A stretch of DNA of 32,000 nucleotides from Candidatus Peribacter riflensis (GTDB lineage Bacteria > Patescibacteriota > Gracilibacteria > Peribacterales > Peribacteraceae). Below the pieces are notes generated by a model, which saw only the letters and a list, made by a program, of their open reading frames with translations, did not search any database and was not told the DNA's origin. A program made the position numbers and the translations under genes. Position 1 is the first letter of the stretch. Each line of letters opens with the position of its first letter. Positions 1-22,140 of the stretch are shown here, piece by piece. The DNA lies in contig CP013062.1 of the NCBI GenBank assembly GCA_001430755.1, positions 570,001 to 602,000 of the forward strand, in the 5' to 3' direction.

Positions 1-1621
1 CGAATCCGCTGATCTGCTCGTCGCGGATCGTGGTCTCGGAGGCATCGAACCGCACAGTGAGCGGGGCGGTTCCGCCGTCGGGATCCATGAGGATCGTCAC
101 GGTGGAGGCGGGCGGCAGCACTTCAACAGTGATGGGCTTGCGCAGAACACGGCCGTCGGGATCCTGCCCGATGAGCCAGAGCGTGTAGACGCCCTCGCGC
201 CGGTACACCGCCTGAACCGACTCCTTCGTCGATCCGACCGTCGTGGCTTCGGGCACCTCCCAGAAGAACTCAATGAGCGGCATGGTCGTACGAGGCTTGA
301 GATCAACGATCACCGGCACTTCGCCACTGATTACGTTGTTCTTCACCTCCGGAGACCCACTAAAGGTGAGATCGGCCAGCTGCAGCTCTTCCGTCACCCG
401 AACCACCTTCGTAATCTTGGCAACCGGACCGGCCTGCGAGCGCAGCTCCGCCGTCACCGGAAAAGCGCCGCGCTGCGTGAAGGTGTGTCCCACCCGCTCG
501 CCCCGCGCCTCGGCCCCGTCTCCGAAACTCCAGAGAACCACGCGAAGCGGCTCGTCGGTCTGCACCCGGAAAACGCCGCCGAACGGAGAAGGCCCGATGA
601 GGTGCTCCGGCTCTGCGAAGAACTCCACCGGGAACGGCAACGGGAGGGAACGGAGGACATCGATGGTCCGCTCATAGGTCTGCTGTGCCTTGGTGACGAG
701 CGTCACCTTCACCGAGACCGGTGTGGGACCCTCCGCGAAGAACGTGTGCACGACATCGAGATTTTTCGTCACCAGGTCCACCTCGCCGTTCCCGTCAAAA
801 TCCCACTCTGCCTGGTCGAGGTCTTCTTTGCGGGGAACGAGGTGCGCGATACTCAGACGTGCCGGCTCATCGAGCACCGGCTGCGCGGGTGCCACCGAGA
901 AAACTGCGTCCGAAATCACCAGACGCCGCGAGAGACGGCGCACATCTCCGCCCTTGAGCGCGATGACGGCCGAAACCGGGAACTGACCCTGACGCTCGTA
1001 GGACGCCGTCACTTCGGGATTGGTGGTCTCGGCATTCATCTTGCCGTCACCCTCAAAATCCCAAATGAACTTTTCGGGGATGAGCTGGCGCCGTGCAAGA
1101 ATCTCCACCGCGGAGCGGACACTGAACGTGATCGAGAGCGGCGCAATAAACTGCTCGGCATTCTCGGGCGTCACGACGGTGATCGTCAGGGGAGGCTCCC
1201 GGCGGATGGCGAACGGCACGGCCACGCTGGCAATGAGCCCCGGAAGAATGACGGCAATGACCTTGATCGCCGCGAGCCGGCGGCGCGGGAGGGTCACCGT
1301 CTCGGCCGAACCGATGCGCAGCAGTGCGAAGATCCCGATGCCGATCAGCACCACCGCCACAATGAGCGCCGCCATCGTGCCAGGAGGAATGAAACGGTCG
1401 TACTCCCCCGTCACATCGGGCAGCACCATAAGAAGGAATGCGGACCAGACAAGGTACGAAATGTAGGGGGTGAAGAGCAGCACGAGAAGAACCCTGCGGA
1501 GCAGGCGGCGGGAAGCCACTGCGGGATCCGCGGTCTTCGGCGCAGGCGCGCTCAGGGGAGCCGCCGCCGGAACCGGAGGAGGGGCAATGCCGTCAACGGG
1601 AGGAACGGGTGGCGTGGTCAT
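1..1621 (-). CDS. PKD-repeat membrane protein (N-terminus complete, C-terminal end runs off the window start)
   Basis: Absent from the ORF track because it has no stop inside the window. Manual minus-strand translation from ATG 1621..1619 stays open to base 1, about 540 codons (MTTPPVPPVDGIAPPPVPAAAP...). It has a Pro-rich N-terminus and three hydrophobic stretches (VLLVLLFTPYISYLVWSAFLLMVL, MAALIVAVVLIGIGIFALL, IKVIAVILPGLIASVAVPFA). These are followed by repeated units with PKD-type signatures (WDFEGDGK, WDFDGNGE, WSFGDGAEARGERVGHTF, APLTVRFDASET). The + strand ORFs 243..677 and 485..1891 are Arg/His-rich antisense shadows. Confidence 0.8.
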   Translation of the reverse strand, partial: MTTPPVPPVDGIAPPPVPAAAPLSAPAPKTADPAVASRRLLRRVLLVLLFTPYISYLVWSAFLLMVLPDVTGEYDRFIPPGTMAALIVAVVLIGIGIFALLRIGSAETVTLPRRRLAAIKVIAVILPGLIASVAVPFAIRREPPLTITVVTPENAEQFIAPLSITFSVRSAVEILARRQLIPEKFIWDFEGDGKMNAETTNPEVTASYERQGQFPVSAVIALKGGDVRRLSRRLVISDAVFSVAPAQPVLDEPARLSIAHLVPRKEDLDQAEWDFDGNGEVDLVTKNLDVVHTFFAEGPTPVSVKVTLVTKAQQTYERTIDVLRSLPLPFPVEFFAEPEHLIGPSPFGGVFRVQTDEPLRVVLWSFGDGAEARGERVGHTFTQRGAFPVTAELRSQAGPVAKITKVVRVTEELQLADLTFSGSPEVKNNVISGEVPVIVDLKPRTTMPLIEFFWEVPEATTVGSTKESVQAVYRREGVYTLWLIGQDPDGRVLRKPITVEVLPPASTVTILMDPDGGTAPLTVRFDASETTIRDEQISGF

Positions 1622-1626
1622 CGCGC

Positions 1627-2640
1627 TCACTCGGTGGGAGCAATCGCAGAGGTTCCCTCCAACAGGGAGCGTAACTGCTCAAGTTTTTCTGGAGAAAGAG
1701 TGGCCCCGGGTTCCTGCTGCACATCTGTGAGACCGAAGAATGACGCAGGGGAAAGCACCTGCGCATCAGCCGGAGGCGTGATGATGGGAGCCGTATCGAA
1801 CTCGCTGAGGTGGGCTGTGAAAGAGCCACTCAGCACCCCCTGTGCCGTCTGCAGGCTCTCGATGGTCCACAGCACGCGGCGCAGGGCGTAGGTCTCGGCG
1901 TCGATCCACATCTCCCCCGTCGCCTGCAAGTTTTCGATGGCACGGGACATGCCCTCCCGATCAATCGTCTCCTGGCGCGCTGCAGCGAGTTGCTCGATGT
2001 ACGCGAGAAGCTTCTCGGAATCCAGAACAACATCGAAGTGGCGCACAGACGCGCCATCGATCGTGGTCACGCCGCGATCTTTCACCACGCGCACCACCTG
2101 TGATTGCGCGCGCAGAATATCCGGCGAGGGCGTCAGGGTTCCGCCGGGAACCGACCCTTCGGCATCGGAAGGGGCCGCAGGAAGGACCCACCACTGATTG
2201 AGGAGCAAGGCGAGCAGCTCCGGCTGGAAGAGGGATTGGTCGGGCTCGGTCACGAGCGACCGGATGCGGAATGTCAGATCCTTACGACCGACGACAATGA
2301 TATCCCCCTCTCCCTGTACGCGGAATGTCTGGCTGCGATCGCCGCCGGGAGCGACGAGTGCATCGGCCGTGATCTCCAGCTGCAACGAATCACCTGCATC
2401 CTGCAGGACTCCTGCGAGCTCCACTGTCCCCGAGGCAGGCAGAGAGCCTCCTTCGAGGCGGAACTGGCCGTCCACGGCAAGACGCACAGACTGCAGAACA
2501 CGGCTCTTCTGCGCCGCCATGCGCAGCACTTCTTCGGCTTCAGGACCGGGAGGAAGTGCAGGCGATCCCCGCAGGAACAGGTAGAGCGGAACGCCCACCA
2601 GAATGAGGACGAACAGGAGAGAGAGGAAGAAACGTTTCAT
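1627..2640 (-). CDS. hypothetical N-terminally anchored envelope protein
   Basis: The track ORF 1627..2856 is trimmed to the internal ATG at 2640. That start gives MKRFFLSLLFVLILVGVPLYLFL, a signal or anchor helix. The upstream 72 codons look like non-coding read-through. The stop at 1627 lies 5 nt before the ATG of the PKD gene at 1621, so the two are probably co-transcribed. No family motif recognised. Confidence 0.7.
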   Translation of the reverse strand: MKRFFLSLLFVLILVGVPLYLFLRGSPALPPGPEAEEVLRMAAQKSRVLQSVRLAVDGQFRLEGGSLPASGTVELAGVLQDAGDSLQLEITADALVAPGGDRSQTFRVQGEGDIIVVGRKDLTFRIRSLVTEPDQSLFQPELLALLLNQWWVLPAAPSDAEGSVPGGTLTPSPDILRAQSQVVRVVKDRGVTTIDGASVRHFDVVLDSEKLLAYIEQLAAARQETIDREGMSRAIENLQATGEMWIDAETYALRRVLWTIESLQTAQGVLSGSFTAHLSEFDTAPIITPPADAQVLSPASFFGLTDVQQEPGATLSPEKLEQLRSLLEGTSAIAPTE

Positions 2641-2734
2641 AGCGTGAGAGTGCGGAAATTTATGACAGTATGCGCGGGGGACAAAGAGAAGACAATTCCC
2701 TGAGTGGACGATGCATGGGGAAGTATGCGCAATC

Positions 2735-3610
2735 TCACCGTCGGGTGCGCACCCGACGGGCGAAAAGATCGCTGGGTTCCTCCAATGTAAACCCGACTGT
2801 GCGGCGCGCGCTGGCACGCATATCCGCGCGCACTTCGAGCAGTATGACCTGCCCACGATTGAGCCGCAGGGGCGAGGCGAGCACGAACGGCGCGAGATCC
2901 CCCCGCAGGGACGGGAGCGAGGCGAGCACCTGCCCGCGCGACGTCTGCAGCATCAGATTCTGCAGATCCGTTCCGCGAGCCGATCCGTCATTCGTGAGCG
3001 TGATGGATTCGACGACCTGGTCGAAATCGCCCTGAGCCGTCAGGCGCAGGCGGGCGACGGAGCGATGGGCTCCGTAGCGGATGCGCGAGAGCACAGGCAG
3101 GAATTCCACAGACACGCTGCCCTGTGCGATGCCGGTGGTCGTGCGTGTCACAGTGACCGGCGCGGGAGAGAACGTGACCCGGTAACCGCCGGCATCAACG
3201 TGTGCGGGAACGTCGATGGTGAGACGGTGTTCCCCGGCCACAGCGGCATCCGCGCCAAAATCCGCAGCGACGGAAAGGGTACGCGTGCCGCATGCGGGAA
3301 CAATCCATGCGGGGTACAGAGACAACGGAACACTCCCGTCCGTCGAAGAGAGCGACCGACCGCGCGAAATTCTGCGCCCATCGCTCAGCACGTAGACAGA
3401 GGAGAAATCATCGGGATCCCCCATTCCGCCGTGCGTCACCGTGATGCCATGCACCGTGGCGTCACCGTCGCAGGGGGCAGTGAAGCGGAGCGAGAGCATC
3501 TCCACCCGCTGGGCTCCGGGAGGAACAGAGGCCGACGGCAACGCCACCACCTGCACGCGGAGCGTGAGGGGCGAGAGGAGCGTGAGCAGCAGAACAGGGA
3601 TCGTCAGCAC
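2735..3610 (-). CDS. hypothetical secreted protein
   Basis: 291-aa ORF with a GTG start at 3610 and a hydrophobic N-terminus (MLTIPVLLLTLLSPLTL). The composition is beta-rich and protein-like. It is the first gene of the minus-strand run 3610 to 1. TATAGT at 3622..3617 lies 6 nt upstream of the start. No family recognised. Confidence 0.65.
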   Translation of the reverse strand: MLTIPVLLLTLLSPLTLRVQVVALPSASVPPGAQRVEMLSLRFTAPCDGDATVHGITVTHGGMGDPDDFSSVYVLSDGRRISRGRSLSSTDGSVPLSLYPAWIVPACGTRTLSVAADFGADAAVAGEHRLTIDVPAHVDAGGYRVTFSPAPVTVTRTTTGIAQGSVSVEFLPVLSRIRYGAHRSVARLRLTAQGDFDQVVESITLTNDGSARGTDLQNLMLQTSRGQVLASLPSLRGDLAPFVLASPLRLNRGQVILLEVRADMRASARRTVGFTLEEPSDLFARRVRTRR

Positions 3611-3666
3611 CGATACACTATACAGAGATCTGCAGAAGAGCGGACCGCGGAGAGAATCACCAGAGC

Positions 3667-6600
3667 ATGAGTACGATGGCAGTGCAACTCTTCACAATTC
3701 TCTCTCATTCCACACCTGCTATAGTCCTCTGCAAGATGTTCCGCACTGCCTTCACAGAGCTCGCCCTGGGCACATTTCTGACACTCGTGCTCACCGGTAT
3801 TCTCGTGGAGCAGAACCGGATGGCTCCGCTCCCCGCGCCTATGCTCTACGGGGCGCTCACAGCCCAAACCAGCTCAGACCCGCCGTACGACCCGCCCCCC
3901 GATCTGGGCGCCTGCTGTTCCTCGTTCGACGGAACCTGCCTCTCAGATTCAACCGATGTCGGCGCGTGCGCAGGCATGGGCGGTATGTTCTATCCATGGA
4001 CGTACTGCAGCAATGCGTGTTCGAGTACCATCTCGTACCCTCCCTGTCCCCCCAGCTGCGACGACGGCGATCCCTGCACCGATGACTGGTGCGAGTTCGG
4101 TATCTGCCAGCACACCAGCATTACCGGCTGTTGCAGATCCAATGCCGAGTGCACTTCCAGCGATCCCTGCTGGGCCACCGAATGCATCGCCAATCAGTGC
4201 TTCGGCATGAACCTGTGCGAGATGGGCGCCTGCTGCCAGCCAGATGGATCCTGCGCACAGACACCGCAACTGTACTGCAGCGGCTCACATTACACATTCG
4301 CGGATTGCTCCATCTGTCCCTCCTCTTCCAGTGTCCCCAGTATGTGCGTGCCGCCGGACTGTGATGACGACGACCCCTGCACCAGCGATGCCTGCATTCC
4401 CGCCGCCGAGGGAGGAGAGATGTGCGACCACATCCCCACCTCCTGCCCCTCCTCCTATTCTTCATCCTCTTCAAGACCCTCACTCGGCTCTTCATCTTCT
4501 ACATCTTCAAGCTCCTCATACCCCTCCTCTTCGCGGTCCTCCTCTTCCTCACAACCCCCCCCTTCCTCACAACCCTCTTCCTCGCGATCCTCCTCTTTCT
4601 CCGGCCCCCCGCCGCCACCGAGCTCCAGCGCCGGCAGCACGCCCTCCTCGCAGCGCAGCACAACCAGCAACGCTTCCAGCAGCTCTGCCACCAATCTGTG
4701 CGAATGGTGCAAGCAGACATTTGGGGAAGATACGGGGTCCCTGTCGTGCTGCGAGGCATCGTGCAACGGATGCCCTCCGGGTACGACGATCGGCGATCCG
4801 CGCGAGAGCGGCTGCGAAACCGACGGCAGCGGCTGCGGCTGCCCCACCTGCAGCGCGACCCCCTCGTCTTCGTCCGCCCCCTCTGCCCCCTCTTCCTCCA
4901 GCACCCCGCCGCCGCCGAGCAGCTCCTCTGTGCATAGCAGCTCTTCCTCCTCTTCCGAGGGACCGGTCTCGTGCTGCTTCGGATCAACGTGCATGGATGA
5001 CGTCTATCCGTTCATCTGCTCGCTCTTCGGCTCTCCGGCGGAAGACCCTGTCTTCGGGCCGGGCAATGACATCTGCGGTGTCGCGACGTGCGGAGGGGGG
5101 GGATCCAGTTCGTCTTCCCCCTCCTCATTCCGTTCTTCTTCCAGCTCATCATCCGAACCGCCCCCTCCGCCTTCCTCATCGTCCTCTTCTTCTTCCTCCT
5201 CCGTCGTTCCCCCGCCTTCATCCTCTTCGAGCACGTCACAAGGCTGCACGGACGCAGAAAAACGGTCGTGCTGTAACACCATCGGCATCCTGCACTGGTG
5301 CAATGACAACGTCTGTCCCGAGGACTGCCGCAAGAAAGGCGTCGAGCCCTACCCCAGCAACGGCGTGTGCGGGGCGAACGGATTCCCGCAGGCCATGCTG
5401 CAGCGGTTCTTCGCTCAGCTCTTGAGCCTCTCTCCCTCCAGCTGCCCCGTGCCCAATTACGCCTGCTGCGGCAAAGATAACCCGACGGAGTGTGTGGTCG
5501 TTACGGCCCAGAGTCAGTGTGAGGGCGGATCGGGAACACCGGTTTCCGCGGGAACAGTCGCCTGCACCGCCGAGCAGTCTGCGGCGTGCGGCACTCCCAG
5601 CTGCGACTTGGGCTGCTGGGGGGGGACTGAATCGGAAATGGCCGCCTCCTGCTACCCCGACCACAACGAAATCAAAGACGCCACCCCCTCTCAGCCGAAT
5701 TACAAGTGCTGCTGCCCGAAGAAACAGAACTGCTGCCGCATGCTTTCCACGCCCACCGGCGGCACCCCTCCCTACGGGCGTTCCTACACCTGCACGCGTG
5801 AGGGGCCCACACAGTGCGCCATGCTCGATGACATCGGGGGCACGATCTACCATCCGGGAACAATCATTTCCGAAGACTGCAACAGTAAGTGCAAAGCCCC
5901 GGATCCTCCGGGGTGGTGCTGCACGCCAGACGGCCCCAAGAAGATGAAGAAGGAGGATTGCAAAGCAGAATTCTCGACTGCGGCGACGGCGCCCGACGAT
6001 TTCTGCCCCCGCGCCTGTTGTCACGGCTCGATCCCAGACGGATGCGCCGTGCGCTCGTGGAAGTACTGCGATACGCTCGACGGCGACTTCAAGTTCGGTG
6101 CAACCGCCTGCGGACCGGAGACGTGCAAAGACAAGAATGAAGTAGCCTGCTGCCCCCTTGAGTCAGGCAGTGGCGGGGCATGGAAGTGCCAGACATTCCC
6201 CAAAAATGAAGAGGAGAGCAAGTGTCAGACTGGAACGTCTTTCGGTGACATCTGTCCCCAGGAGAATCCCGCATCTCCCCTCTGCGGCCCGCCCCCCGAG
6301 CGCCTCGTGGCCTGCTGCAGTACCGAAGGAACCTGCTGGCAGATGTATCTAAAGGAAGGCGACAGCTGCGAAACCAAGAATGGGGTCAATACGTACCACC
6401 CCGATCCTTTCGATCCCCCGAGCGACTGCAAGGCCGGCCCAGCGGGACAGCCGGGGATCAATTGCGTGCCAGGGACCCCGCCCAAGGGCGCCTGCTGTTT
6501 CAGCAACAAGCCCTGCGCGCAGCTGACATCGAAGGAATGCGGGGATGGAGGCGGGGCGTACAAGGGAGCGGGTGCTTCGTGCTCCCCCGACCCCTGCGGC

Positions 6601-9600
6601 AACACCGTGGCTTGCTGCACGCGACCGGACGAGGGCACCGCTTGGTCCTGCACGCCAAAACTAGAATCACAGTGCAAAGATGGCACGAATACGCGCAATC
6701 TCGGCAAAGCGGCGCAGTGCCCGGCAGACTGGGAGCAGCAATGTGCAGTCGAAAAAATCGCCTGCTGTCTGAAGAGTCCATCAGGCGGAAAGTCCTGCGG
6801 CACGGTGAAGAAATCGGAGGCTGATTCACTCTGCGCGTCGACATTCGCCGAGGGTGCGTCGCCGAGCTGCAGCGCCGAGCAGGAGGCCACCTGCGCACCC
6901 ATCGCCTGCTGCCCCAAGGAAGGCTGTCGTATCGAAAGTTGTACAGCAATGACGGCGTTGCAGTGCGGCGCAGAGGGGTGTGAGGCGAAAGGCGCCGGCT
7001 CCACCTGCACGCCAGACCCCTGTGCTCCTCCCAAGGCCTGCTGCGGCTCGGACAGGCAGAATCCTAGTTGCACCGCACGCTCTGCCTGCGGTGAGGGTGA
7101 AACGGAAATTGAGGGCAAATGCCCGGCGGCGGGCAGTGATGAAATGCGTGAAAAGTGCAGTATGGTCGCCTGCTGTCAGGAGAAGGACGGCGAGCTGACC
7201 GGTGTCTGCGCCCTCGGAGAATCCTGCAACAGCAATAACGAACGGCCGGCAGTCTCGTCGGACGGCAAGCCCGTCACCTCCTGCTCGCCCAATCCGTGCG
7301 AAACGCCCCCAAAGAAAGTTGCCTGCTGCCCCAAGGGCAGCGAGACGTGTGCGATGGATCAGTCGCGTGAAGACTGTGACGCAACCCAGACCATCAGCGA
7401 TAACAATTCGTGTGACGGCATCACCTGTGTGAAGCAGTCCGCCTGCTGCAAAGAAGAAGCCGACGGCTCGTTCAGCTGCCCCGCCAAGCCCGCAGAAGGG
7501 AGCTGCCCCGCAGGAACGAAACCGATGGACATGGCGGAGTGCAAAGAGAAGGGCTGTCCGGAACCCAAGTTCGCCTGCTGCCTCCTCGTCGAAGGCAGCG
7601 CAGATGTCTACACATGCACCACGAATTTCACACGTGATGAGTGCATAGCAAAAAGGGGGTTAACCAAGCCCAACTACTGCCCATCGGGATTGGCTGAAGT
7701 AAAAAAGTACTGCGGCGGTGATTCGGTCGTGTGCTGCGACAAGAACGGCGCCTGCATCGAAGACCCCAGCGATCCGTCGACGGAGTGTCTTGAGGGAACG
7801 ATAGAATCAAGCAATGATCGATGCTCAGAAGAGAAAAAGGCCGAATGCAAGAAAAAGGGCGGCTCCTGTTGCAAGCTGGACGCTGCCAAGAAACCGACCT
7901 GCAGAGAGAAGCCGGCAGCCGGGTGCAGTGCCGATGAGCGGTCCTACGAACTCGACGTTGCAGGCTGCCAGACGGAGTGTAAGGGGCAGGTCAGCTGCTG
8001 CGGCGGTGATTGGGAGAAGGCAACCTGCGAGACGAGAGAAGCGGTGAAGTGCAAGGAGGACGAACGCGAGGTGAATGTGGACAAGTGTCCCGAGGATCAG
8101 GAAGCAATTGAAAAGCTGTGCTCCGGGAACATTGGCTGTTGTTTCCCTCCCCCAGCCCCCCAGTACCCGTGGACCTGCGAGTCTAGCGTCTATACCAAAA
8201 CGGAGTGCGAACGGTACAAGGGGACGCCGGTGAACTACTGCCCCTCGAGCGTGGAGGATATCCAGAAGGTCTGCAACGGAAAGAAGGGTTCCGTCATCTG
8301 CTGCGGCGGCGAAGACGGCAAGGAGTGCCTGCTCAACCCTGCGGATCCGGATAGTGAGTGTACAGCGGGATCCATCGAACATGATGACAGAAACCTGAAC
8401 GTGTGCCCGGCCTCGAAGAAGAGTGCCTGCGCAAAAGAGAAGGTCAACTGCTGCTCCGTAGACGAAAACTTTCTACTCACAGGGGAGTGTCAATCCAACG
8501 TGCCGGCGCAAGATTGTCCGTCTGACCGGCGGGTCAACCAGTGCAGCAAGACTGCCTGTCAGAAGCGCGTAGCCTGCTGCGTTAAAGACGCCCCGGGCTG
8601 TGTCGAGAATATCCCGGCAAATCAGTCGTCGTACTTCTGCCAGGCAGGCAAAATCTCAGAGCAGAACAATTGCAACGAATTCGTGATGAGAGATAGAGGG
8701 AGAACAACGAATCTCTGCGAGCAGGGGCCATGGTCATGCTGCACGCAGCCCGGGCGCTCGCTGGCCTGCGTCGATCTGCAGAACGTTGGGCAAGTCACCG
8801 AATGCAGCAAGCAAGGCTTCGTTCCCATCATCGGCGCCACCTGTAAAGACAATCCGAATCCCTGTCAGATTCTTATGAAAAAGCGGCACGCCTGCTGCTC
8901 GCCCAAGACGGGTCCGGATGGCCGACCGTGGATGGCCTGCGAGGAGCAGGATAACGGCACCCCCGTGGTCATGACTCCGTCCACCCTCCTTGCAGAGACC
9001 ACCACAGGTGACGATGGAGGCAGTGGCGAGAGTTGTTACCTCGATCTGCCCAGCTGCGTCGCCAGCTGCCCGGTCGGTCCGATCGAAGAGCCATCGTCAT
9101 CGGATGGCAACAATGAAAGCTCTGCCGGAGGTGGTGGCATACCGGGTGGGGGTGGGGGCGGAGGTGGAGGTGGCAGCGCTGGCGGTGGAACCAGTGGAGG
9201 TGGAGCCAGCCATCCCTCGGGTGGCGACGAGAGTTCCGCCGGAGGCGGCGGAGGGAGTGACGGCAGCTCCGGGAGCGGTGGTGGCGGTGGTGGCAGCAGT
9301 GCCGGAGGAGGCACGCCGGGTGGGGGTGGAGGAGGTGGCGGTGGAACGACGAGTGACTCGGGCTCCTCGGGTTCGCAGGGCTCGGTTCCAGCGTCTTCGG
9401 CGGGCGGCGGAGCCAGCCATCCCTCGGGTGGCGACGAGAGTTCCGCCGGAGGCGGCGGAGGGAGTGATGGAAGCTCTGGAAGTGGAGGCGGGGGTGGAGG
9501 TGGTGGCAGCGCCGGTGGTGGAGGCGGTAGCGCCGGAGGCAGTGATGGAAGCTCTGGAAGTGATGGGGGTGGCAGCAGTGGCGGAGGAGGCGGCAGTGAA

Positions 9601-10356
9601 GGAAGTGAGGGCAGTGAAGGGAGTGCGAAGGGCGGTGGAGGAGGCGGAGGTGGAGGAGGTGGAGGAGGTGGGAGCGAAGGCTCGACCGGCAGCGCCGGAT
9701 CATCCGGCTCAGTTCCCCCGCCCCCCGCCTCCTCCGCAGGCGGCACAAGCAGCGAGGGGGAATCCAGTTCCAAGCCGCCCGCGAAGGGCAACTGCTGCAT
9801 CGAGGGCGCAGACTACGGCATCTGCTTTGCCGACATCAGTGCACAGACATGCGAAGACAGCGCCATGGGCGGAACATTCATGGGCGATTCGCAGTGCATC
9901 GCCTCGCCCTCGACCGGTGCCAACTGCGGACCGACCGGCGGAAGCAGCTCTTCGGGAGGAGACCCCTCCTCGCAGGAGAGCAGCGCAGCCACCCCCTGCG
10001 GCAACGGACTGCCGGATGAGGGAGAGCAGTGCGATCTGGGTATTTATAACAGCAATACCCCGAATGCCCTGTGCCGCACAGACTGCACGTCCGCCCGCTG
10101 CGGCGACGGCATTGTGGATACCAACCCATCGGGAAGGCCGAAGGAGCGCTGTGACGACGACGGACGCAACAGTGATACGGAGCCGGGAGCCTGCAAGACC
10201 AACTGCAAGTACCGCAACACCTACTTCACCCTCGGCCAGTGGCTGCAGAATCTCCAGCTCTACGCCATAGACGGGGTACCGGTGCCGGATGCCCCTGAGA
10301 CGAACGAGAACACGCAGTTCCTCGTCATCGGCGCACTGACGTTCATCCTCATGTAG
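3667..10356 (+). CDS. giant secreted cysteine-rich repeat protein (2229 aa)
   Basis: A single uninterrupted 6.7-kb ORF. The N-terminal hydrophobic segment is LALGTFLTLVLTGILV, and an alternative start is ATG 3736 (MFRTAF...). There are 32 Cys-Cys doublets, mostly in the context (V/I/G)ACC. Ser/Pro-rich linkers lie at about 4440..4680, 4860..4960 and 5100..5230, and a Gly/Ser tract at about 9100..9720. Two CDDxDPCTxDxC motifs lie near the N-terminus. A CGNG...GEQCD...CGDG...CDDDG unit lies near the C-terminus. The protein ends in a short hydrophobic tail. Confidence 0.9.
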   Translation: MSTMAVQLFTILSHSTPAIVLCKMFRTAFTELALGTFLTLVLTGILVEQNRMAPLPAPMLYGALTAQTSSDPPYDPPPDLGACCSSFDGTCLSDSTDVGACAGMGGMFYPWTYCSNACSSTISYPPCPPSCDDGDPCTDDWCEFGICQHTSITGCCRSNAECTSSDPCWATECIANQCFGMNLCEMGACCQPDGSCAQTPQLYCSGSHYTFADCSICPSSSSVPSMCVPPDCDDDDPCTSDACIPAAEGGEMCDHIPTSCPSSYSSSSSRPSLGSSSSTSSSSSYPSSSRSSSSSQPPPSSQPSSSRSSSFSGPPPPPSSSAGSTPSSQRSTTSNASSSSATNLCEWCKQTFGEDTGSLSCCEASCNGCPPGTTIGDPRESGCETDGSGCGCPTCSATPSSSSAPSAPSSSSTPPPPSSSSVHSSSSSSSEGPVSCCFGSTCMDDVYPFICSLFGSPAEDPVFGPGNDICGVATCGGGGSSSSSPSSFRSSSSSSSEPPPPPSSSSSSSSSSVVPPPSSSSSTSQGCTDAEKRSCCNTIGILHWCNDNVCPEDCRKKGVEPYPSNGVCGANGFPQAMLQRFFAQLLSLSPSSCPVPNYACCGKDNPTECVVVTAQSQCEGGSGTPVSAGTVACTAEQSAACGTPSCDLGCWGGTESEMAASCYPDHNEIKDATPSQPNYKCCCPKKQNCCRMLSTPTGGTPPYGRSYTCTREGPTQCAMLDDIGGTIYHPGTIISEDCNSKCKAPDPPGWCCTPDGPKKMKKEDCKAEFSTAATAPDDFCPRACCHGSIPDGCAVRSWKYCDTLDGDFKFGATACGPETCKDKNEVACCPLESGSGGAWKCQTFPKNEEESKCQTGTSFGDICPQENPASPLCGPPPERLVACCSTEGTCWQMYLKEGDSCETKNGVNTYHPDPFDPPSDCKAGPAGQPGINCVPGTPPKGACCFSNKPCAQLTSKECGDGGGAYKGAGASCSPDPCGNTVACCTRPDEGTAWSCTPKLESQCKDGTNTRNLGKAAQCPADWEQQCAVEKIACCLKSPSGGKSCGTVKKSEADSLCASTFAEGASPSCSAEQEATCAPIACCPKEGCRIESCTAMTALQCGAEGCEAKGAGSTCTPDPCAPPKACCGSDRQNPSCTARSACGEGETEIEGKCPAAGSDEMREKCSMVACCQEKDGELTGVCALGESCNSNNERPAVSSDGKPVTSCSPNPCETPPKKVACCPKGSETCAMDQSREDCDATQTISDNNSCDGITCVKQSACCKEEADGSFSCPAKPAEGSCPAGTKPMDMAECKEKGCPEPKFACCLLVEGSADVYTCTTNFTRDECIAKRGLTKPNYCPSGLAEVKKYCGGDSVVCCDKNGACIEDPSDPSTECLEGTIESSNDRCSEEKKAECKKKGGSCCKLDAAKKPTCREKPAAGCSADERSYELDVAGCQTECKGQVSCCGGDWEKATCETREAVKCKEDEREVNVDKCPEDQEAIEKLCSGNIGCCFPPPAPQYPWTCESSVYTKTECERYKGTPVNYCPSSVEDIQKVCNGKKGSVICCGGEDGKECLLNPADPDSECTAGSIEHDDRNLNVCPASKKSACAKEKVNCCSVDENFLLTGECQSNVPAQDCPSDRRVNQCSKTACQKRVACCVKDAPGCVENIPANQSSYFCQAGKISEQNNCNEFVMRDRGRTTNLCEQGPWSCCTQPGRSLACVDLQNVGQVTECSKQGFVPIIGATCKDNPNPCQILMKKRHACCSPKTGPDGRPWMACEEQDNGTPVVMTPSTLLAETTTGDDGGSGESCYLDLPSCVASCPVGPIEEPSSSDGNNESSAGGGGIPGGGGGGGGGGSAGGGTSGGGASHPSGGDESSAGGGGGSDGSSGSGGGGGGSSAGGGTPGGGGGGGGGTTSDSGSSGSQGSVPASSAGGGASHPSGGDESSAGGGGGSDGSSGSGGGGGGGGSAGGGGGSAGGSDGSSGSDGGGSSGGGGGSEGSEGSEGSAKGGGGGGGGGGGGGGSEGSTGSAGSSGSVPPPPASSAGGTSSEGESSSKPPAKGNCCIEGADYGICFADISAQTCEDSAMGGTFMGDSQCIASPSTGANCGPTGGSSSSGGDPSSQESSAATPCGNGLPDEGEQCDLGIYNSNTPNALCRTDCTSARCGDGIVDTNPSGRPKERCDDDGRNSDTEPGACKTNCKYRNTYFTLGQWLQNLQLYAIDGVPVPDAPETNENTQFLVIGALTFILM
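9202..9467. repeat. in-frame direct duplication inside the Gly/Ser tract of the giant gene
   Basis: The 59-bp string ggagccagccatccctcgggtggcgacgagagttccgccggaggcggcggagggagtga occurs identically at 9202..9260 and 9409..9467. The offset is 207 bp, or 69 codons. Degenerate similarity continues for about 25 bp after each copy. A further 22-bp exact repeat, agtgatggaagctctggaagtg, occurs at 9463..9484 and 9541..9562. Confidence 0.9.
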
Positions 10357-10449
10357 GAAACGGACGCAACCAAAGAAAGGTGTCATGTGACACAGGCCGC
10401 CTGGCCTCATGAACGCTCTTCATGCTAGAACCTGCACGTTCTTTGCCCT

Positions 10450-12969
10450 ATGATGAAAATACCAATGACCGCGCATCCCGATCCACTGCCCACCCTCCCG
10501 CTCCTCCCCTTCTCCACCCTGAGTGATACCGAGGTGAAAGCCCTGCTGCGCACGCACAAGATTGGGCTCACCGTAGAGGAGGCGCGCAAGATCGAAGTGA
10601 TGCTCGGGCGAGATCCGACCATCGTGGAGGCGACCATCTGGGGCATTCAGGGCAGCGAGCACTGCAGCTACAAATCGAGCAGGCGTTTTCTCCGTACGTT
10701 CCCCACGGAGAGCAGGCACGTCATCCTCGGCCCGAAGGAGGATAGCGGCATCGTCGCCATCACCGACGGACCCAAGGGCAGGCGCTGGGGCCTCGTCATC
10801 TCGCACGAGTCGCACAATCACCCCTCGCAGATCGTGCCCTTCGAGGGGGCGGCTACCGGCATCGGCGGAGTCGTCCGCGACGTGGTCTGTATGGGCGCGC
10901 GGGTGATCGGCGCGCTCGATGCTCTGCGTCTGGGGGATCTGAAAACCGAGGAATCGCGCACCATTGCGCGCGAAGTGGCTCGCGGCATCGCGGGGTACGG
11001 CAACCCCCTCGGCATCCCCAACCTCGGCGGCGACACCGTCTTCGATGCGTCGTACAACAGCAACTGTCTCGTGAACGCCATTGCCGTCGGCATCGTGCGC
11101 GAGGATGAAGTGATTCACAGCGAAGCGCCCGAAGAGGCCGGTCAGGTCGGCTACGACATCATTCTCGTAGGCAAACCCACCGACCGCAGCGGTTTCGGCG
11201 GCGCCTCCTTCGCCAGCGCCTCCATGGAAGAGGAGAAGAAGGAGCAGAATTCGGGAGCTGTGCAGGAACCGAATCCGTTTTTGGAACGCCACCTGCTCGC
11301 CTCCACCTACGCGCTCTTCGACTGGCTCGCGGCCAACCGCCACCTCGACAAAGTGAGCTTCAAAGATCTGGGGGCGGGCGGTGTCGTCTGTGCGAGTGTG
11401 GAGCAGGTGGCCAATCTGGGGCTGGGAGCGGAAGTCGATCTGGATGCCGTGCACGTGTCGGTGGCGGATCTGCCCCCCGAGATCATTGCCTGTGCAGAGA
11501 CGCAGGAACGCTTCTGCTGGGTCTGTCACCCCTCACTCACCGATCAGATCCTGCGCCACTACAACGAAATCTGGGATCTGCCGTCGGTCGCCGAGCATGC
11601 GCGCGCCAGCCGCATCGGCCGTGTAATGGTGAATCCCCTCCTCCGGCTCACCCATCGTGGCCAGGTGGTCTGCGTGGCGAAGGCGCTCGATATCACCTGC
11701 GGGCTCCAGTACACGCGTCCGACAAAGCTGACTCCTTCGGCAAGGATCGAGCCCGCCATCACTTGCGAGAAAGATCGCGTGTCTGTGAACGGCAAAACGT
11801 TCTCCTTCACAGAAATTCTGCACGCGATGCTTCGTCACCCCAACGCCGCGAGTGTTCGTCCCCTCATCCGCCACTACGACAAGGACGTGATCGGCAACAC
11901 CATCATCGAGGCCGGCGAAGCCGATGCCGGCGTGATCGCGCCGCTCACCGATCTCTCCAGCTATATCCACGCAGGCACGCACCCCGGCTGGGAAAATCTG
12001 CCCGAGAAGGACCGGGGCGTGGGTGTTGCTCTCGCCGCAGACGGCAACGGCCGGTACGGACGCATCTCCGCCTACTGGCAGGGCGCCAACGCCGCCGTGG
12101 AATCCATGTGCAACGTGGCAGCCGTCGGTGCCGTGCCCCGCGCGCTCACCGACTGCCTGAACTACGGCAATCCCGAAATCCCCGAACAACTCTCTGCACT
12201 GGAAGAAGGCGTAAGGGGCATTGCCGACGCCGCCAGAGGAGTAGCCATCGATGGCGAACCCGTGCCGATCATCTCGGGCAACGTCAGCCTCTACAACGGC
12301 AAGCCCGACGGATCAGCCATCGACCCCACCGCCATCGTCTGCTGCATCGGCGTCCTGCCGGATGCGCGTGCGGCGGTCTCGATGCAGGTGAAGCAACCGG
12401 GCTCCGCCCTGCTGCTCATCGGCGAACGCAGAAACGAGTGCGGCGGCTCTCTCTACTTTCACGTCCTCGAGCAGCTCACCGCGTCGCCGCGCGATGCCCT
12501 GCTCGGATCTGCAGTCCCGCAACCCGACTGCGCGACCGTCGCACAGGAGATATTGTTGATCACAAAAGTTATACAATCAGGTGATGCCCTCGCCTGCCAC
12601 GACATCAGTGACGGGGGGCTCCTGCTCGCGCTCTTCGAAATGCTCCTTCCGCAGAGAAAGATAGGAGGAACGACGGGAGCGGAAATCGACCTCGCCTCCC
12701 TGCAATCCTCTCTGCAGCCCGATACCCTGCTCTTCAGCCAGACGCACGGCTTCCTTGTTGAAACCCCGCAGGAACGGGCAGACGCCATCATCGCCCAGGG
12801 AAAGAACATGGGCATTGCAGTCACCCGCATCGGCCAGACCACCTCCTCTCCCCTCCTCGCCGTGCGCAGGGGCACAGAGAGCCTGCTTGCCGCAGAGTTG
12901 AAGGATCTGCGCTCCATTTGGGAAAAGGGCTTGGAATCGGCTTGGACTGAGCCCGAGAAACACAGTTGA
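10450..12969 (+). CDS. purL: phosphoribosylformylglycinamidine synthase subunit PurL (FGAM synthase II)
   Basis: 839-aa ORF with the PurL signatures WGIQGSEHCSYKSS and SHESHNHPSQIVPFEGAATGIGGVVRD, and the AIR-synthase-like duplication DISDGGLLLALFEM near the C-terminus. Confidence 0.95.
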   Translation: MMKIPMTAHPDPLPTLPLLPFSTLSDTEVKALLRTHKIGLTVEEARKIEVMLGRDPTIVEATIWGIQGSEHCSYKSSRRFLRTFPTESRHVILGPKEDSGIVAITDGPKGRRWGLVISHESHNHPSQIVPFEGAATGIGGVVRDVVCMGARVIGALDALRLGDLKTEESRTIAREVARGIAGYGNPLGIPNLGGDTVFDASYNSNCLVNAIAVGIVREDEVIHSEAPEEAGQVGYDIILVGKPTDRSGFGGASFASASMEEEKKEQNSGAVQEPNPFLERHLLASTYALFDWLAANRHLDKVSFKDLGAGGVVCASVEQVANLGLGAEVDLDAVHVSVADLPPEIIACAETQERFCWVCHPSLTDQILRHYNEIWDLPSVAEHARASRIGRVMVNPLLRLTHRGQVVCVAKALDITCGLQYTRPTKLTPSARIEPAITCEKDRVSVNGKTFSFTEILHAMLRHPNAASVRPLIRHYDKDVIGNTIIEAGEADAGVIAPLTDLSSYIHAGTHPGWENLPEKDRGVGVALAADGNGRYGRISAYWQGANAAVESMCNVAAVGAVPRALTDCLNYGNPEIPEQLSALEEGVRGIADAARGVAIDGEPVPIISGNVSLYNGKPDGSAIDPTAIVCCIGVLPDARAAVSMQVKQPGSALLLIGERRNECGGSLYFHVLEQLTASPRDALLGSAVPQPDCATVAQEILLITKVIQSGDALACHDISDGGLLLALFEMLLPQRKIGGTTGAEIDLASLQSSLQPDTLLFSQTHGFLVETPQERADAIIAQGKNMGIAVTRIGQTTSSPLLAVRRGTESLLAAELKDLRSIWEKGLESAWTEPEKHS

Positions 12970-16390: not shown

Positions 16391-17671
16391 CTATCTCTCA
16401 ATCATCTTCTCTGCCAATTCCGTGATATCCCCCGCTCCGAGCGTGAGGAGCACATCGCGCGGCCTGAGAACCATCTGCGTGAGGAGCGTTGCGGTCTCCT
16501 CGAGGGATCGGCCATACAGTGCTTCAACGTGACTTTCCTGACCAATGGCGGAGACGAATCGCTCCACATCAACCATTCCGCTGTCCATCGAGCGGCGGAC
16601 ATCGTAGATAGTCGGGATGATGACGACCGAGGCTCCTTCGAAAGCGCGCGTGAATGCCTCATACAATTTGAGCGTGCGGTCGTGCGTGTGCGGCTGGAAG
16701 ACGACCACAAGCCGTCGACCGGGATACGCCTGCAAGAGTGCCTGCAACGTCGCACGGATCTCGGTGGGATGGTGCCCGTAGTCATCGATGACCGTCACGC
16801 CCTCTTTCGTCTCGCCACGCACTTCCATCCGCCGCCAGCATCCGGCATAGCCCGCGAGCGAGGCCAGCATCTGTTCGCGCTTGAGTTGAAGCTCCTCCGC
16901 GAGCGCCAGAACGAGCTGCGCATTCTGCTGCATGTGAAGGCCGGGAGTGGAGAGAGCCGGCAGCGGCAAGACATCCGCATCGATCAGCCGACGTGCGCCG
17001 TGAGCGACAATCGCCGTGCAGACGGCATCTTGGCCATGCGTGATCACCGGGCCATCCGGAGGCAGACGCTTCACGAAATCCACGAACGCCTGCTCGTACT
17101 CCTGCTGCGACCGGTAGTAGTCGAAATGATCGCCGTCCGCATTGGTGAGGAGGATGAATGACGGAGAGAGAAAGTGAAAGGACCTGCGGTACTCGCATGC
17201 CTCGACGAGAAAGAGGTCGCTTCCTCCGTTGCGCCAGTTGCGGCCATTGAGCTCGCGGAGCTTCGTGCCGACGATCACGCTGGGATCGAGCCCCGCTTCG
17301 ATGAGCACGCGCGCCGCCATCGCGGTGGTGGATGATTTGCCGTGCGTGCCGGCGACGGCGATCACCCGCTGTCCGCGAGAGAGATCTCCGAGCGCCTGAA
17401 AGTACGACTGCTGCTTCACCCCGAGTGCCGCGGCGCGCACCCGCTCGGGGCTGCCTTCGGGCACCGCCTCGGAGTACACGAAGAGGTCGAGGTCGTCCGG
17501 TACGGCCGAACCATCCTGCTTCAGAGACACGGTGATCCCCTGCCCTCTCAGATCCCGCACGATGGCGGAATCGGCGCGGTCGCTGCCAAGCACATCGTGT
17601 CCGCGACTCTTCTGGTAGGCCGCATAGGCCGAGAGCCCTATCCCGCCGATGCCACTGCAGTAGATCTTCAT
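16391..17671 (-). CDS. murC: UDP-N-acetylmuramate--L-alanine ligase
   Basis: MKIYCSGIGGIGLSAYA, the P-loop AGTHGKSSTTAM, EACEYRRSF and DDYGHHPTEI are the MurC/Mur-ligase signatures, in the right order and spacing. The start at 17671 is ATG. Confidence 0.93.
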   Translation of the reverse strand: MKIYCSGIGGIGLSAYAAYQKSRGHDVLGSDRADSAIVRDLRGQGITVSLKQDGSAVPDDLDLFVYSEAVPEGSPERVRAAALGVKQQSYFQALGDLSRGQRVIAVAGTHGKSSTTAMAARVLIEAGLDPSVIVGTKLRELNGRNWRNGGSDLFLVEACEYRRSFHFLSPSFILLTNADGDHFDYYRSQQEYEQAFVDFVKRLPPDGPVITHGQDAVCTAIVAHGARRLIDADVLPLPALSTPGLHMQQNAQLVLALAEELQLKREQMLASLAGYAGCWRRMEVRGETKEGVTVIDDYGHHPTEIRATLQALLQAYPGRRLVVVFQPHTHDRTLKLYEAFTRAFEGASVVIIPTIYDVRRSMDSGMVDVERFVSAIGQESHVEALYGRSLEETATLLTQMVLRPRDVLLTLGAGDITELAEKMIER

Positions 17672-17697: not shown

Positions 17698-17790
17698 AGG
17701 AAATAGAGGAAAGAAAAGAAATAAAAGAACGAGAGAAGAAGTCCATGGTTCTTCTCTTTCCTTTGTCTCCTTTATTTCCTCTCTTTCCTC
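17698..17790. repeat. polypurine / polypyrimidine imperfect inverted repeat in the murC - ftsB-like divergent region
   Basis: 17698..17741 is 44 nt with only 3 pyrimidines. 17749..17790 is 42 nt with only 2 purines. The two tracts flank ccatgg (17743..17748). The perfect 9-bp core stem is agagaagaa (17732..17740) pairing with ttcttctct (17749..17757). Confidence 0.7.
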
Positions 17791-19614: not shown

Positions 19615-20022
19615 TTAGATTTCCGCACAAGGAAAATCCTGAAGCGCCGTCTGCTTCACACCGTTCACTTCGCCGTACAGCCGCAGCCGATCCACCGGAA
19701 TGGCGAATGCAGTTCCTTCAAGAATCTTCATCACCTTCTTCTTCACGATAGTGAATCTCTGCGGATGAGCGATGCGCGCGAGCGTGATATGCGGCACAAA
19801 GGGACGTCCGTCGGACCACGGACACGTCTTCTTCACCCGCGCCAGCTCTTCACTGAAGCCAACGGGCAGAAAGAGCACGTGCTCCTCTCCCCTGCTGCCG
19901 AAGGTATCCGCACCCATCACGTGCATCGTGAACGGCCGATGGAGTAGTGCGATTTTCCGTGCCTGCGCCGCGATGCCCTGGTATTCGAGCGGCCCCACGC
20001 TCGGCCAGAACATAAGGGTCAA
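19615..20022 (-). CDS. thpR: 2H phosphoesterase (2'-5' RNA ligase / ThpR-LigT family); the true N-terminus is probably upstream of 20022
   Basis: The second H-x-T-x motif is VPHITLARI. The first, PHLTLMF, straddles the only available start, TTG 20022, so the His at 20025..20023 lies just outside the track ORF. The frame stays open upstream to a stop at 20208..20206. That stretch encodes a family-typical N-terminal strand (RSVFLALPLEGNPKWQFQALQEELKPF) but contains no ATG, GTG or TTG. Confidence 0.7.
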   Translation of the reverse strand: MTLMFWPSVGPLEYQGIAAQARKIALLHRPFTMHVMGADTFGSRGEEHVLFLPVGFSEELARVKKTCPWSDGRPFVPHITLARIAHPQRFTIVKKKVMKILEGTAFAIPVDRLRLYGEVNGVKQTALQDFPCAEI

Positions 20023-20176
20023 GTGCGGTGATTGCGGATTCTGAAAACGGAGAATATCCGCAAAGGGTTTCAGCTCCTCCTGAAGCGCCTGAAACTGCCA
20101 CTTGGGGTTGCCCTCGAGCGGGAGGGCGAGAAAGACGGACCGGAGGGGGAAGTTGAGAGATTGGATACCGAAGGAG

Positions 20177-20265
20177 GAATATCGGAGTAACAGAGTATCA
20201 GAATATCAGTGAAACAACCCCGACCCTGCATACTGATATTCTGATATTCCGATATTCTGATACTC
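20177..20265. repeat. two convergent arrays of four tandem octamers (consensus TGATAYTC)
   Basis: Left array on the + strand: GAATATCG 20177..20184, GAGTAACA 20185..20192, GAGTATCA 20193..20200, GAATATCA 20201..20208. Right array: TGATATTC 20234..20241, TGATATTC 20242..20249, CGATATTC 20250..20257, TGATACTC 20258..20265. The arms are reverse complements of one another around a 25-nt G/C-richer spacer. The innermost 8 bp pair perfectly and the next 8 bp have one mismatch. Confidence 0.85.
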
Positions 20266-20267
20266 CA

Positions 20268-22085
20268 CTACGATCGCTTCAGCACGGTCAGAAATGCCTC
20301 CTGTGTCAACGTCACCCGGCCCATCTTCTTCATGCGCTTCTTGCCCTTCTTCTGCTTCTCGAGGAGCTTATTCTTGCGCGTCACATCCCCGCCGTAGAGG
20401 TACCCCGTCACGTCTTTGCGGTAGGCTGCCACCGTCTCGCGCGCGACGATCTTGCCGCCAATAGCGGCCTGAATGGGAATCTGGAACTGTTGCTTGGGCA
20501 TGACCTCCTTGAGCTTCTTTGCGATCACCGCACCCACATGGTGCGCTTCACTGCGATGCACAATAGTCGAGAGCGCATCGGCGCTCTCACCGAGCAGAAG
20601 AATCTGAAGCTTCACGAGGTCTCCCGCCCGGTAACCGATGGGATCGTAACTCATGGAGCCGTAGCCGGAGGTGGCGGACTTGAGGAGGTCGAAGAAGTCG
20701 AGGACGATTGCCTGCAGCGGCACCTCGAAAGTGAGGAGGGCACGATCGGCATCGAGGTAGCTCAAGTCCAACTGGATGCCGCGGCGATCCCCGATGAGCG
20801 TCATGGCCGCGCCGATATCCTGTGCCCTGCACACGATCTCGAGCTTCACCCACGGCTCGCGCACTTCGGCGATGCACGAGGGATCGGGAAAGTCGGCGGG
20901 ATTGCTGATGCGCGCCGTATCAGGCTCGTCCACTTTGAGCAGGCTGGCACGCACCACTTCCGCGGGACGGCGAACCGCAAGCTTCACCTCGTAGAGCACG
21001 CTCGGCGCGGTGATGATGAGATCGCAGTCATGCTCGCGCTCCAGTCGCTCCTGCACGATATCCATGTGGAGCAGACCCAAAAATCCGCACCGGAATCCGT
21101 TGCCCAGCGCCGCATTGTGCTCCGGCTCAAATTTGAGGGCGGCATCGTTGAGGGCCAGCTTCTCGAGCGCCTCGCGCAGGTCTGGATAGTTGTCGGCCTC
21201 CGACGGATAGAGCCCGGCGAAAACCATGGGCTGCACCTCCGTGTACCCGGGCAGAGCCTGCAGACCTTCTGTGGATGCCACGGTGTCTCCCGTACGGACC
21301 GAGCGGACATCTTTCGACCCCGTGACGATGTAGCCGATCTCACCTTCCGCGAGAGCGGGGTCCGATGCGTACTTGGGAGAGAAGTGCCCCAGATCCAAGA
21401 CCTCGACGGGAGTTTTGGTCCCCAGCAGGTGCGCCTTGTCCCCTTTCGTAAATGTGCCCTCGACCACGCGTACGTAGGCGACGGCCCCGCGGTACGGATC
21501 CATCACCGCATCGAAGATGAGTGCGCGTGCTCCGCCCGACTGAGCGAACTTTTTGGGGGGCGGAACCAGCTGCACCACCCTGTCGAGAACCTCGGTGACT
21601 CCCCTGCCCTCTTTTGCCGAAATCCGCAGGATCTCTTCCTTCTCACAGCCGAGCAACTTCATCACTTCTTCGCTCACCCGTTCAGGATCCGCCGCAGGCA
21701 GATCGATCTTATTGAGCACGGGAATAATTGTGAGGTTACATTCCATCGCCATCGTCAGCACAGCGAGCGTCTGGGCCTGAATGCCCTGCGAGCAATCAAC
21801 GAGCAGAATGGCACCCTCGCACGCCACAAGACTACGGCTCACCTCGTAGCGGAAATCGGTATGCCCGGGCGTGTCGATGAGGTTCAATTGGATTCCTTTC
21901 CAGCCCATGCGCACCGGGGTCAATTTAATCGTGATGCCGCGCTCACGCTCCAGATCCATCATATCGAGGAGCTGCTCTTTCATCTCGCGCTTCTGCAGCG
22001 TGCCCGTGGCCTCGATCATACGGTCGGCAAGAGTAGATTTGCCATGATCGATATGCGCGATAATGCAGAAGTTACGGATTTCCAT
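20268..22085 (-). CDS. lepA: elongation factor 4 (LepA)
   Basis: MEIRNFCIIAHIDHGKSTLADR (G1), DTPGHTDF (G3) and NKIDL (G4), with the LepA-specific C-terminal region conserved throughout. The track start is GTG 22091; ATG 22085 gives the canonical N-terminus. Confidence 0.95.
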   Translation of the reverse strand: MEIRNFCIIAHIDHGKSTLADRMIEATGTLQKREMKEQLLDMMDLERERGITIKLTPVRMGWKGIQLNLIDTPGHTDFRYEVSRSLVACEGAILLVDCSQGIQAQTLAVLTMAMECNLTIIPVLNKIDLPAADPERVSEEVMKLLGCEKEEILRISAKEGRGVTEVLDRVVQLVPPPKKFAQSGGARALIFDAVMDPYRGAVAYVRVVEGTFTKGDKAHLLGTKTPVEVLDLGHFSPKYASDPALAEGEIGYIVTGSKDVRSVRTGDTVASTEGLQALPGYTEVQPMVFAGLYPSEADNYPDLREALEKLALNDAALKFEPEHNAALGNGFRCGFLGLLHMDIVQERLEREHDCDLIITAPSVLYEVKLAVRRPAEVVRASLLKVDEPDTARISNPADFPDPSCIAEVREPWVKLEIVCRAQDIGAAMTLIGDRRGIQLDLSYLDADRALLTFEVPLQAIVLDFFDLLKSATSGYGSMSYDPIGYRAGDLVKLQILLLGESADALSTIVHRSEAHHVGAVIAKKLKEVMPKQQFQIPIQAAIGGKIVARETVAAYRKDVTGYLYGGDVTRKNKLLEKQKKGKKRMKKMGRVTLTQEAFLTVLKRS

Positions 22086-22140
22086 GCCCACTCATCCTAC
22101 TGAGCGCCACGTCGAAACTCCAGACACAAGATGGAAACAA

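Follow-up and report, generated by a model that had tools for sequence, protein, structure and literature searches.

On balance, the block of eight octamers that separates lepA from a 2H phosphoesterase gene in the groundwater bacterium Candidatus Peribacter riflensis probably belongs, as a form without a gene, to a class of repeat-armed hairpins that resemble the intervening sequences (IVSs) of 23S rRNA; it is probably co-transcribed with its neighbours, cut by RNase III and without a function specific to this locus. The layout of the class is two convergent arrays of approximately four 7-9-nt units around a spacer, and its full-size form has a PF05635 gene in the loop. In the literature, this PF05635-carrying, repeat-armed layout has been described only for rRNA intervening sequences. 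The hairpin is dispersed in the genome, recurs in related genomes and is present at some orthologous sites and absent from others.

The octamer hairpin between lepA and the 2H phosphoesterase gene

Within the window (the whole stretch of 32,000 nt that was analysed), the block reads exactly as the sequence-only reading had it, namely four octamers, a 25-nt spacer and four octamers (Table 1). On the plus strand, the left array contains four contiguous GARTATCA units (GAATATCG, GAGTAACA, GAGTATCA and GAATATCA), and the right array contains four TGATAYTC units (TGATATTC, TGATATTC, CGATATTC and TGATACTC). Six exact TGATAYTC matches were found in the window, five of them in the block, compared with an expected number of 0.91, and none of 100 shuffles reached this count. 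A repeat search returned period-8 direct families on either side and inverted arms of 35 nt with 83% complementarity; TRF reported a period of 8 with 3.8 copies per side.

The lepA-sense RNA of the block was predicted to fold at −49.4 kcal/mol (z = −4.4), with regularly spaced 1x1 mismatches. The long stem proposed earlier was thus recovered, whereas its perfect inner part measures 15 bp, not 8 bp. Two further details needed correction: the array lies 2 nt (20266-20267), not 3 nt, from the lepA stop codon (20268-20270), and the block, described as the most A/T-rich DNA of the window, has a GC content of 39% and is only the fifth-lowest among the 89-nt stretches of the window.

Table 1 Features of the octamer block, its flanking genes and a second repeat hairpin in the window
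Feature	Position in window	Strand	Description or evidence
Arm 1, four GARTATCA-type tandem octamers	20177..20208		3' arm on the lepA-sense (minus) strand; direct repeats spaced 8, 8, 8
Spacer (loop), 25 nt	20209..20233		Unrelated to the other three loops apart from the GTGAAA/TTTCAC motif next to one arm
Arm 2, four TGATAYTC-type tandem octamers	20234..20265		5' arm on the lepA-sense strand; period-8 direct repeats
Complete hairpin in the presumed lepA/2H transcript	20176..20266	-	Stem of ~34 bp, 1x1 mismatches, 15-bp perfect inner part
lepA (EF4)	20268..22091	-	GTP_EFTU E 1.8e-55, LepA_C E 3.2e-44
2H (LigT-like) phosphoesterase	19615..20166	-	LigT_PEase E 2.5e-16
Second gene-less hairpin	17698..17790		Convergent 9-nt arrays, AGGAAATAA x3.6 and TTCCTCTCT x4.7; 35% GC

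A promoter and terminator scan gave no match at the octamer hairpin, no T-run follows the stem on either strand, and the stem is A/U-rich. An Rfam search of the block returned nothing at the gathering threshold, the best hits being microRNA-hairpin look-alikes (30.5 bits vs 69), and a full-text literature search with 16-mers of the unit found no paper. The second hairpin of the window directly precedes a minus-strand gene for a Mur ligase (16391-17671).

As had been noticed from the sequence, the 2H frame lacks a usual start codon; no ATG, GTG or TTG is located ahead of the first catalytic motif. Translation appears to start at an ATC (20166-20164), 10 nt past the hairpin, where relatives have the N-terminus M-Q-N-L-T-F-P-L-R and the frame here reads I-Q-S-L-N-F-P-L-R. 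In one relative, G001, an ATT occupies the equivalent position (L048 ~1470), with an in-frame TGA six codons upstream, and other relatives have ATG or GTG. Both genomes with a non-canonical 2H start also have a hairpin 10 nt upstream of that start, and folding of the hairpin would juxtapose the lepA stop and the 2H start at the base of the stem. A profile search of the neighbour genes identified no DNA-binding gene adjoining the hairpin.

Copies of the TGATAYTC hairpin in the genome and beyond

Whether the array is unique or dispersed had been put forward as a check, and it is dispersed, with four copies in the genome and more in relatives, one of them orthologous. The genome is closed (1,248,026 bp, 58.5% GC), and its convergent TGATAYTC hairpins are at positions 590177, 704395, 968790 and 1018382, compared with none for the reversed-pattern control. 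Besides the copy after lepA, one lies between the genes of HMG-CoA reductase and an HMG-CoA synthase-like protein, another separates the genes of a PduO-type adenosyltransferase and an M16 peptidase, and another lies upstream of a GT4 glycosyltransferase gene. The four loops are unrelated except for a GTGAAA/TTTCAC motif beside one arm, whose orientation with respect to the flanking genes varies. No recent identical copies of the TGATAYTC hairpin were found, and no target duplication was visible at the flanks of the genome copies or at orthologous junctions.

In the same genus, 16-mer arrays of the unit were present in six of eight genomes, and they were also found in several sister genera (controls 0-1). 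Three units in a row occurred in 76 stretches from many phyla of the species collection, a count that has no matched control and is partly simple-repeat noise. Many of these stretches are convergent pairs, in Omnitrophota, Microgenomates, Planctomycetota and Nitrospirota, and others are one-directional simple repeats; pure one-directional arrays of 3-18 units are found in many unrelated genomes. Pure TGATATTC arrays of this kind were observed at L061, L103, L077, L066 and L121, with 18 units at a contig end in a Methylococcaceae genome and 4-6 at one conserved Paracoccus site. Such variation in unit number is ordinary simple-sequence repeat behaviour.

What looked like a 6-kb element with terminal inverted TGATAYTC repeats in genome G022 was rejected as an assembly artefact, its contig being perfectly palindromic. 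At this locus (L027; contig 4, 19000-31000), the arm 1-5841 is followed without a spacer by its perfect (100%) complement, 5842-11682, indicating a fold-back artefact and not a transposon. When metagenomes were searched with the 3' end of lepA, the single match was attributable to chance.

Occupancy of orthologous junctions

In related species, the junctions that hold these hairpins are variably filled, by differing unit families. After lepA, the orthologous TGATAYTC hairpin is present in G001, the junction in G004 consists of 9 nt without a hairpin, the lepA/2H junction of G006 is occupied by an unrelated hairpin (L050), and heptamer hairpins (TTGATAA/TTATCAA and ATCCGAA/TTTCGAA) are found in two other genera. 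The arms of the G006 hairpin resemble the GTCATCCTGAGCG...GAAGGATG type, which is seen in many bacterial phyla.

Meanwhile, some hairpin lies just upstream of the HMG-CoA synthase gene in 7 of 10 species. At this reductase/synthase junction, a TGATAYTC hairpin is present in the closed genome (G000) and in G024, none is present in G003, and other units are found in G008 (GCAGTAA), G002 (GGGRTAAG), G001 (GTATGCAG) and G005 (GAATTAT). Additionally, the reading frame of HMG-CoA reductase in G008 contains four TACAAGC heptamers in its 3' part (L169), which suggests a repeat array within coding sequence.

The G001 orthologue of the lepA hairpin folds at −38.2 kcal/mol in sense and −23.6 kcal/mol in antisense, and the octamer hairpin of the closed genome folds without strand asymmetry. 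Covariation across homologous loci had been suggested as a further check. Aligning the two hairpins did reveal one compensatory and four G-U wobble-preserving changes on the sense strand; however, 243 of 500 shuffles were equally good, and with two sequences only the result is not significant. The evidence for RNA-level selection on the hairpin is thin.

Other unit families and PF05635 genes

At least 29 gene-less hairpins from four other 7-9-nt unit families were identified in the genome; in all, it has approximately 35 gene-less repeat hairpins, from at least five families. Four genes of PF05635 (23S rRNA intervening-sequence protein, S23p; a four-helix bundle) are present, all between convergent arrays and each with its own arm unit: GAATTAT (18 convergent pairs in the genome), CTAAGGA (5), GGTAAGGTA (2) and GGGAACTA (8), one pair of each family being the one around the gene. 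TGATAYTC (GAATATCA) forms two strict or four loose convergent pairs, none of them around such a gene. Array counts per unit ranged from 7 to 44 in this genome, compared with 0 to 11 for reversed controls. One of the four PF05635 genes is located between atpD and atpC.

Relatives contain up to 16 PF05635 genes per genome, and for 17 of 32 such genes the inverted-arm score exceeded the highest of 63 shifted controls. Duplex energies compared between the strands of 32 cassettes were noisy and favoured neither strand (14 vs 18). No PF05635 gene with TGATAYTC arms was found in this genome or its genus, and a genome search of G024, which has TGATAYTC hairpins, detected no PF05635 gene at all. Outside the genus, TGATAYTC-type arms surround a PF05635 gene at an Omnitrophota locus (L084, E 7.8e-29), and TGATAYTC-like arrays lie on both sides of one in the sister genus G014. 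The two proteins are not close relatives of each other, so the shared unit may be convergent.

The loops of the gene-less copies showed no similarity to the inner ends of the copy that bears a gene, so this comparison gave no support for an origin of the gene-less copies by deletion; unlike in deletion derivatives of transposons, the loops are also unrelated to one another.

Repeat hairpins in the 23S rRNA gene and RNase III

The 23S rRNA gene of this genome (L174, genome positions 1194029-1198017) is approximately 1 kb longer than the model. It contains a 202-nt insertion near model position 1500, in which a long helix is topped by a GAATTAT-type repeat hairpin, as well as a group I intron (L174 3904-4223, 60.5 bits) with a GAATTAT-family hairpin in a peripheral loop. 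All hairpin contexts found were transcribed spacers, rRNA or an intron. The hairpin design shared by the rRNA insertion, the group I intron and the operon spacers ties the mRNA copies to the classical intervening sequences.

The genome encodes RNase III (rnc, match at 223238-223624). Under the IVS-like interpretation, the octamer hairpin would be transcribed inside the lepA/2H message, and the transcript would fold into a double-stranded RNA stem of approximately 34 bp. The resident RNase III would probably cut this stem, as the enzyme does IVS stems, and cutting may separate or stabilise the lepA and 2H messages in a REP-like manner. Gene-less hairpins of the CTAAGGA and GGGAACTA families were also observed just upstream of the RNase III gene itself, at genome positions 223074-223168 and 222310-222394 (L160). 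In E. coli, RNase III regulates its own synthesis by cutting a leader hairpin.

Searches for enzymes of mobility were negative: no reverse transcriptase (RVT_1) was found in the genome, nor was a Y1 transposase or RAYT (Y1_Tnp, PF01797) found in the closed sequence. Telomerase-like repeat addition at breaks was considered and dropped, as no reverse transcriptase is present.

Comparison with known repeat systems

One close parallel is with ORF-bearing 23S IVSs. The IVS in helix 45 of the Coxiella burnetii 23S rRNA has a 28-bp terminal stem inside which RNase III cuts, tandem heptamers in variable number and an S23p ORF in the loop (PMC4990558). PF05635 genes in rRNA insertions have also been reported from candidate-phyla bacteria in a preprint (10.1101/2024.02.27.582315). 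The hairpins described here share with the IVSs of Coxiella burnetii and Leptospira the terminal inverted repeats with a stem of ~28-34 bp, and they likewise have short tandem repeats in the arm, heptamers in Coxiella and approximately four units of period 8 per arm here. PF05635 is the loop gene of the full-size relatives, and IVSs are regarded as selfish. Unlike these IVSs, the lepA hairpin has no ORF and a loop of only 25 nt, and it sits between two protein genes and not in an rRNA helix; its unit is an octamer, and in contrast to the Coxiella case, RNase III cleavage is here a prediction by analogy.

In Xanthomonas, Rehm et al. (2015) described 70-75 convergent pairs of GGGAATC heptamers per genome (PMC4692102). 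Four units are favoured, the pairs lie near stop codons, and the authors' explanation is G-quadruplexes (PMC4692102). The resemblance is considerable: in both cases, two close convergent arrays of approximately four units each are located between co-oriented genes near stop codons, with many copies in each genome. However, the unit here is A/T-rich, has no G-run as GARTATCA or TGATAYTC, and has a period of 8 and not 7. An A/T-rich TGATAYTC unit cannot form a G-quadruplex, so that this explanation is inapplicable here and not general. Moreover, Rehm et al. make no link between the Xanthomonas repeats and PF05635 genes (PMC4692102).

REP/REPIN-RAYT systems are similar in being dispersed imperfect palindromes at gene ends, in having one gene-bearing copy that shares its repeat with many gene-less copies (as in four unit families here) and, by analogy, in a likely effect on mRNA processing or stability. 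They differ in their Y1 transposase, which is missing here, and in their arms, which are a fixed sequence of 20-40 nt where ours are tandem arrays; furthermore, no copy of the TGATAYTC family bears a gene in this genome.

Contiguous recognition units are familiar from ribbon-helix-helix proteins, such as the 8-bp met boxes of MetJ, the 7-bp heptads of omega and the tetramer boxes of ParG, which form operators or centromeres. Those arrays also comprise contiguous 7-8-bp units in direct and inverted runs, whereas the hairpins here are away from promoters and cognate genes, are dispersed and vary between species. In addition, the hairpin is unlike a MITE, with no target-site duplication and no conserved internal sequence among copies, and unlike an intrinsic terminator, with no G+C-rich stem and no following U-tract.

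Alternative explanations

The arrays had been proposed to be cooperative protein-binding sites or a dedicated small RNA with a function at this locus. This proposal was unsupported: there are four TGATAYTC copies among approximately 35 hairpins of at least five families, junctions of sister species hold quite different units or nothing, and no Rfam family matched; some protein may still bind the arrays. The doubt expressed at the same time about a plain terminator proved justified, with neither a U-tract nor a terminator-like match and with kindred hairpins between co-expressed genes. A host-serving RNA element is a broader alternative, in which a hairpin is retained at certain gene junctions for its effect on transcript ends, processing or stability, either as a lineage-specific terminator that lacks a U-tract or as an mRNA stabiliser, and its unit is free to turn over. 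The position 2 nt past the lepA stop agrees with this idea, as do the hairpins before the HMG-CoA synthase gene in 7 of 10 species and the repeat hairpins after lepA in several genera, the far better sense fold of the G001 orthologue (−38.2 vs −23.6 kcal/mol) and the fact that more than half of 33 gene-less hairpins lie within approximately 10 nt of an ORF end, as judged from a crude and noisy ORF map. We nevertheless consider it unlikely, because the U-tract and terminator match are missing, the sites are empty in the close relatives G004 and G003, the GTGAAA motif places copies both along and against the direction of transcription, the same design is found inside rRNA, in an intron and around a selfish-looking gene, and the copy in the closed genome has no strand asymmetry. 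Termination in particular would be awkward between genes that need co-expression, such as those of HMG-CoA reductase and synthase, or atpD and atpC, which flank a gene-bearing copy.

At the DNA level, the arrays could be sites for a protein that recognises the repeat, either of the ribbon-helix-helix type or a PF05635 pentamer, binding cooperatively to each arm. This would account for the strict 8-bp phasing, for a unit consensus held across four loci and several genera and seen also in distant phyla, and for PF05635 genes that each lie between arrays of their own unit while gene-less hairpins of the same unit are found elsewhere. It would also demand as many recognisers as there are unit families, at least five in a 1.25-Mb genome, although no PF05635 gene of this genome corresponds to the TGATAYTC family and none of any kind was detected in G024. 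With hairpins that are intercistronic and not in promoter regions, units that change between orthologous sites and no adjoining DNA-binding gene, we regard this explanation as very unlikely. The arrays might instead be a by-product of replication without any identity as an element, whereby slippage creates tandem repeats, template switching mirrors them and the arrays are then homogenised within the genome. Unique loops with only the unit of the arms in common, one-directional TGATAYTC arrays of 3-18 units in many unrelated genomes and the lack of a mobility enzyme in the RVT_1 and Y1_Tnp searches would all fit; however, such a process fails to explain why a few units dominate one genome (7-44 arrays vs 0-11 for reversed units), why the arms so often enclose one gene family and why units differ at one junction among sister species, and we regard it as quite unlikely. 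The IVS-like, co-transcribed hairpin thus remains the explanation that we favour.

Implications

Convergent pairs of 7-9-nt tandem repeats are widespread in bacterial genomes and have no agreed explanation. The closed genome studied here offers, for each of four families, one copy around a four-helix-bundle gene together with several gene-less hairpins. A bolder and rather improbable extension is that each PF05635 protein recognises its own 7-9-nt unit and that an undescribed system writes or propagates the arms, the TGATAYTC hairpins being orphans whose master was lost. If own-unit recognition were true, each family would consist of one gene-bearing master and many gene-less hairpins, and this would amount to a mobile system of the REPIN/RAYT kind that lacks any known nuclease or transposase. 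For annotation, blocks of repeat hairpins of this type should not be labelled as terminators or operators. Together with the corresponding sites in sister species, the genome is a compact setting in which RNase III processing and the role of PF05635 proteins could be tested.
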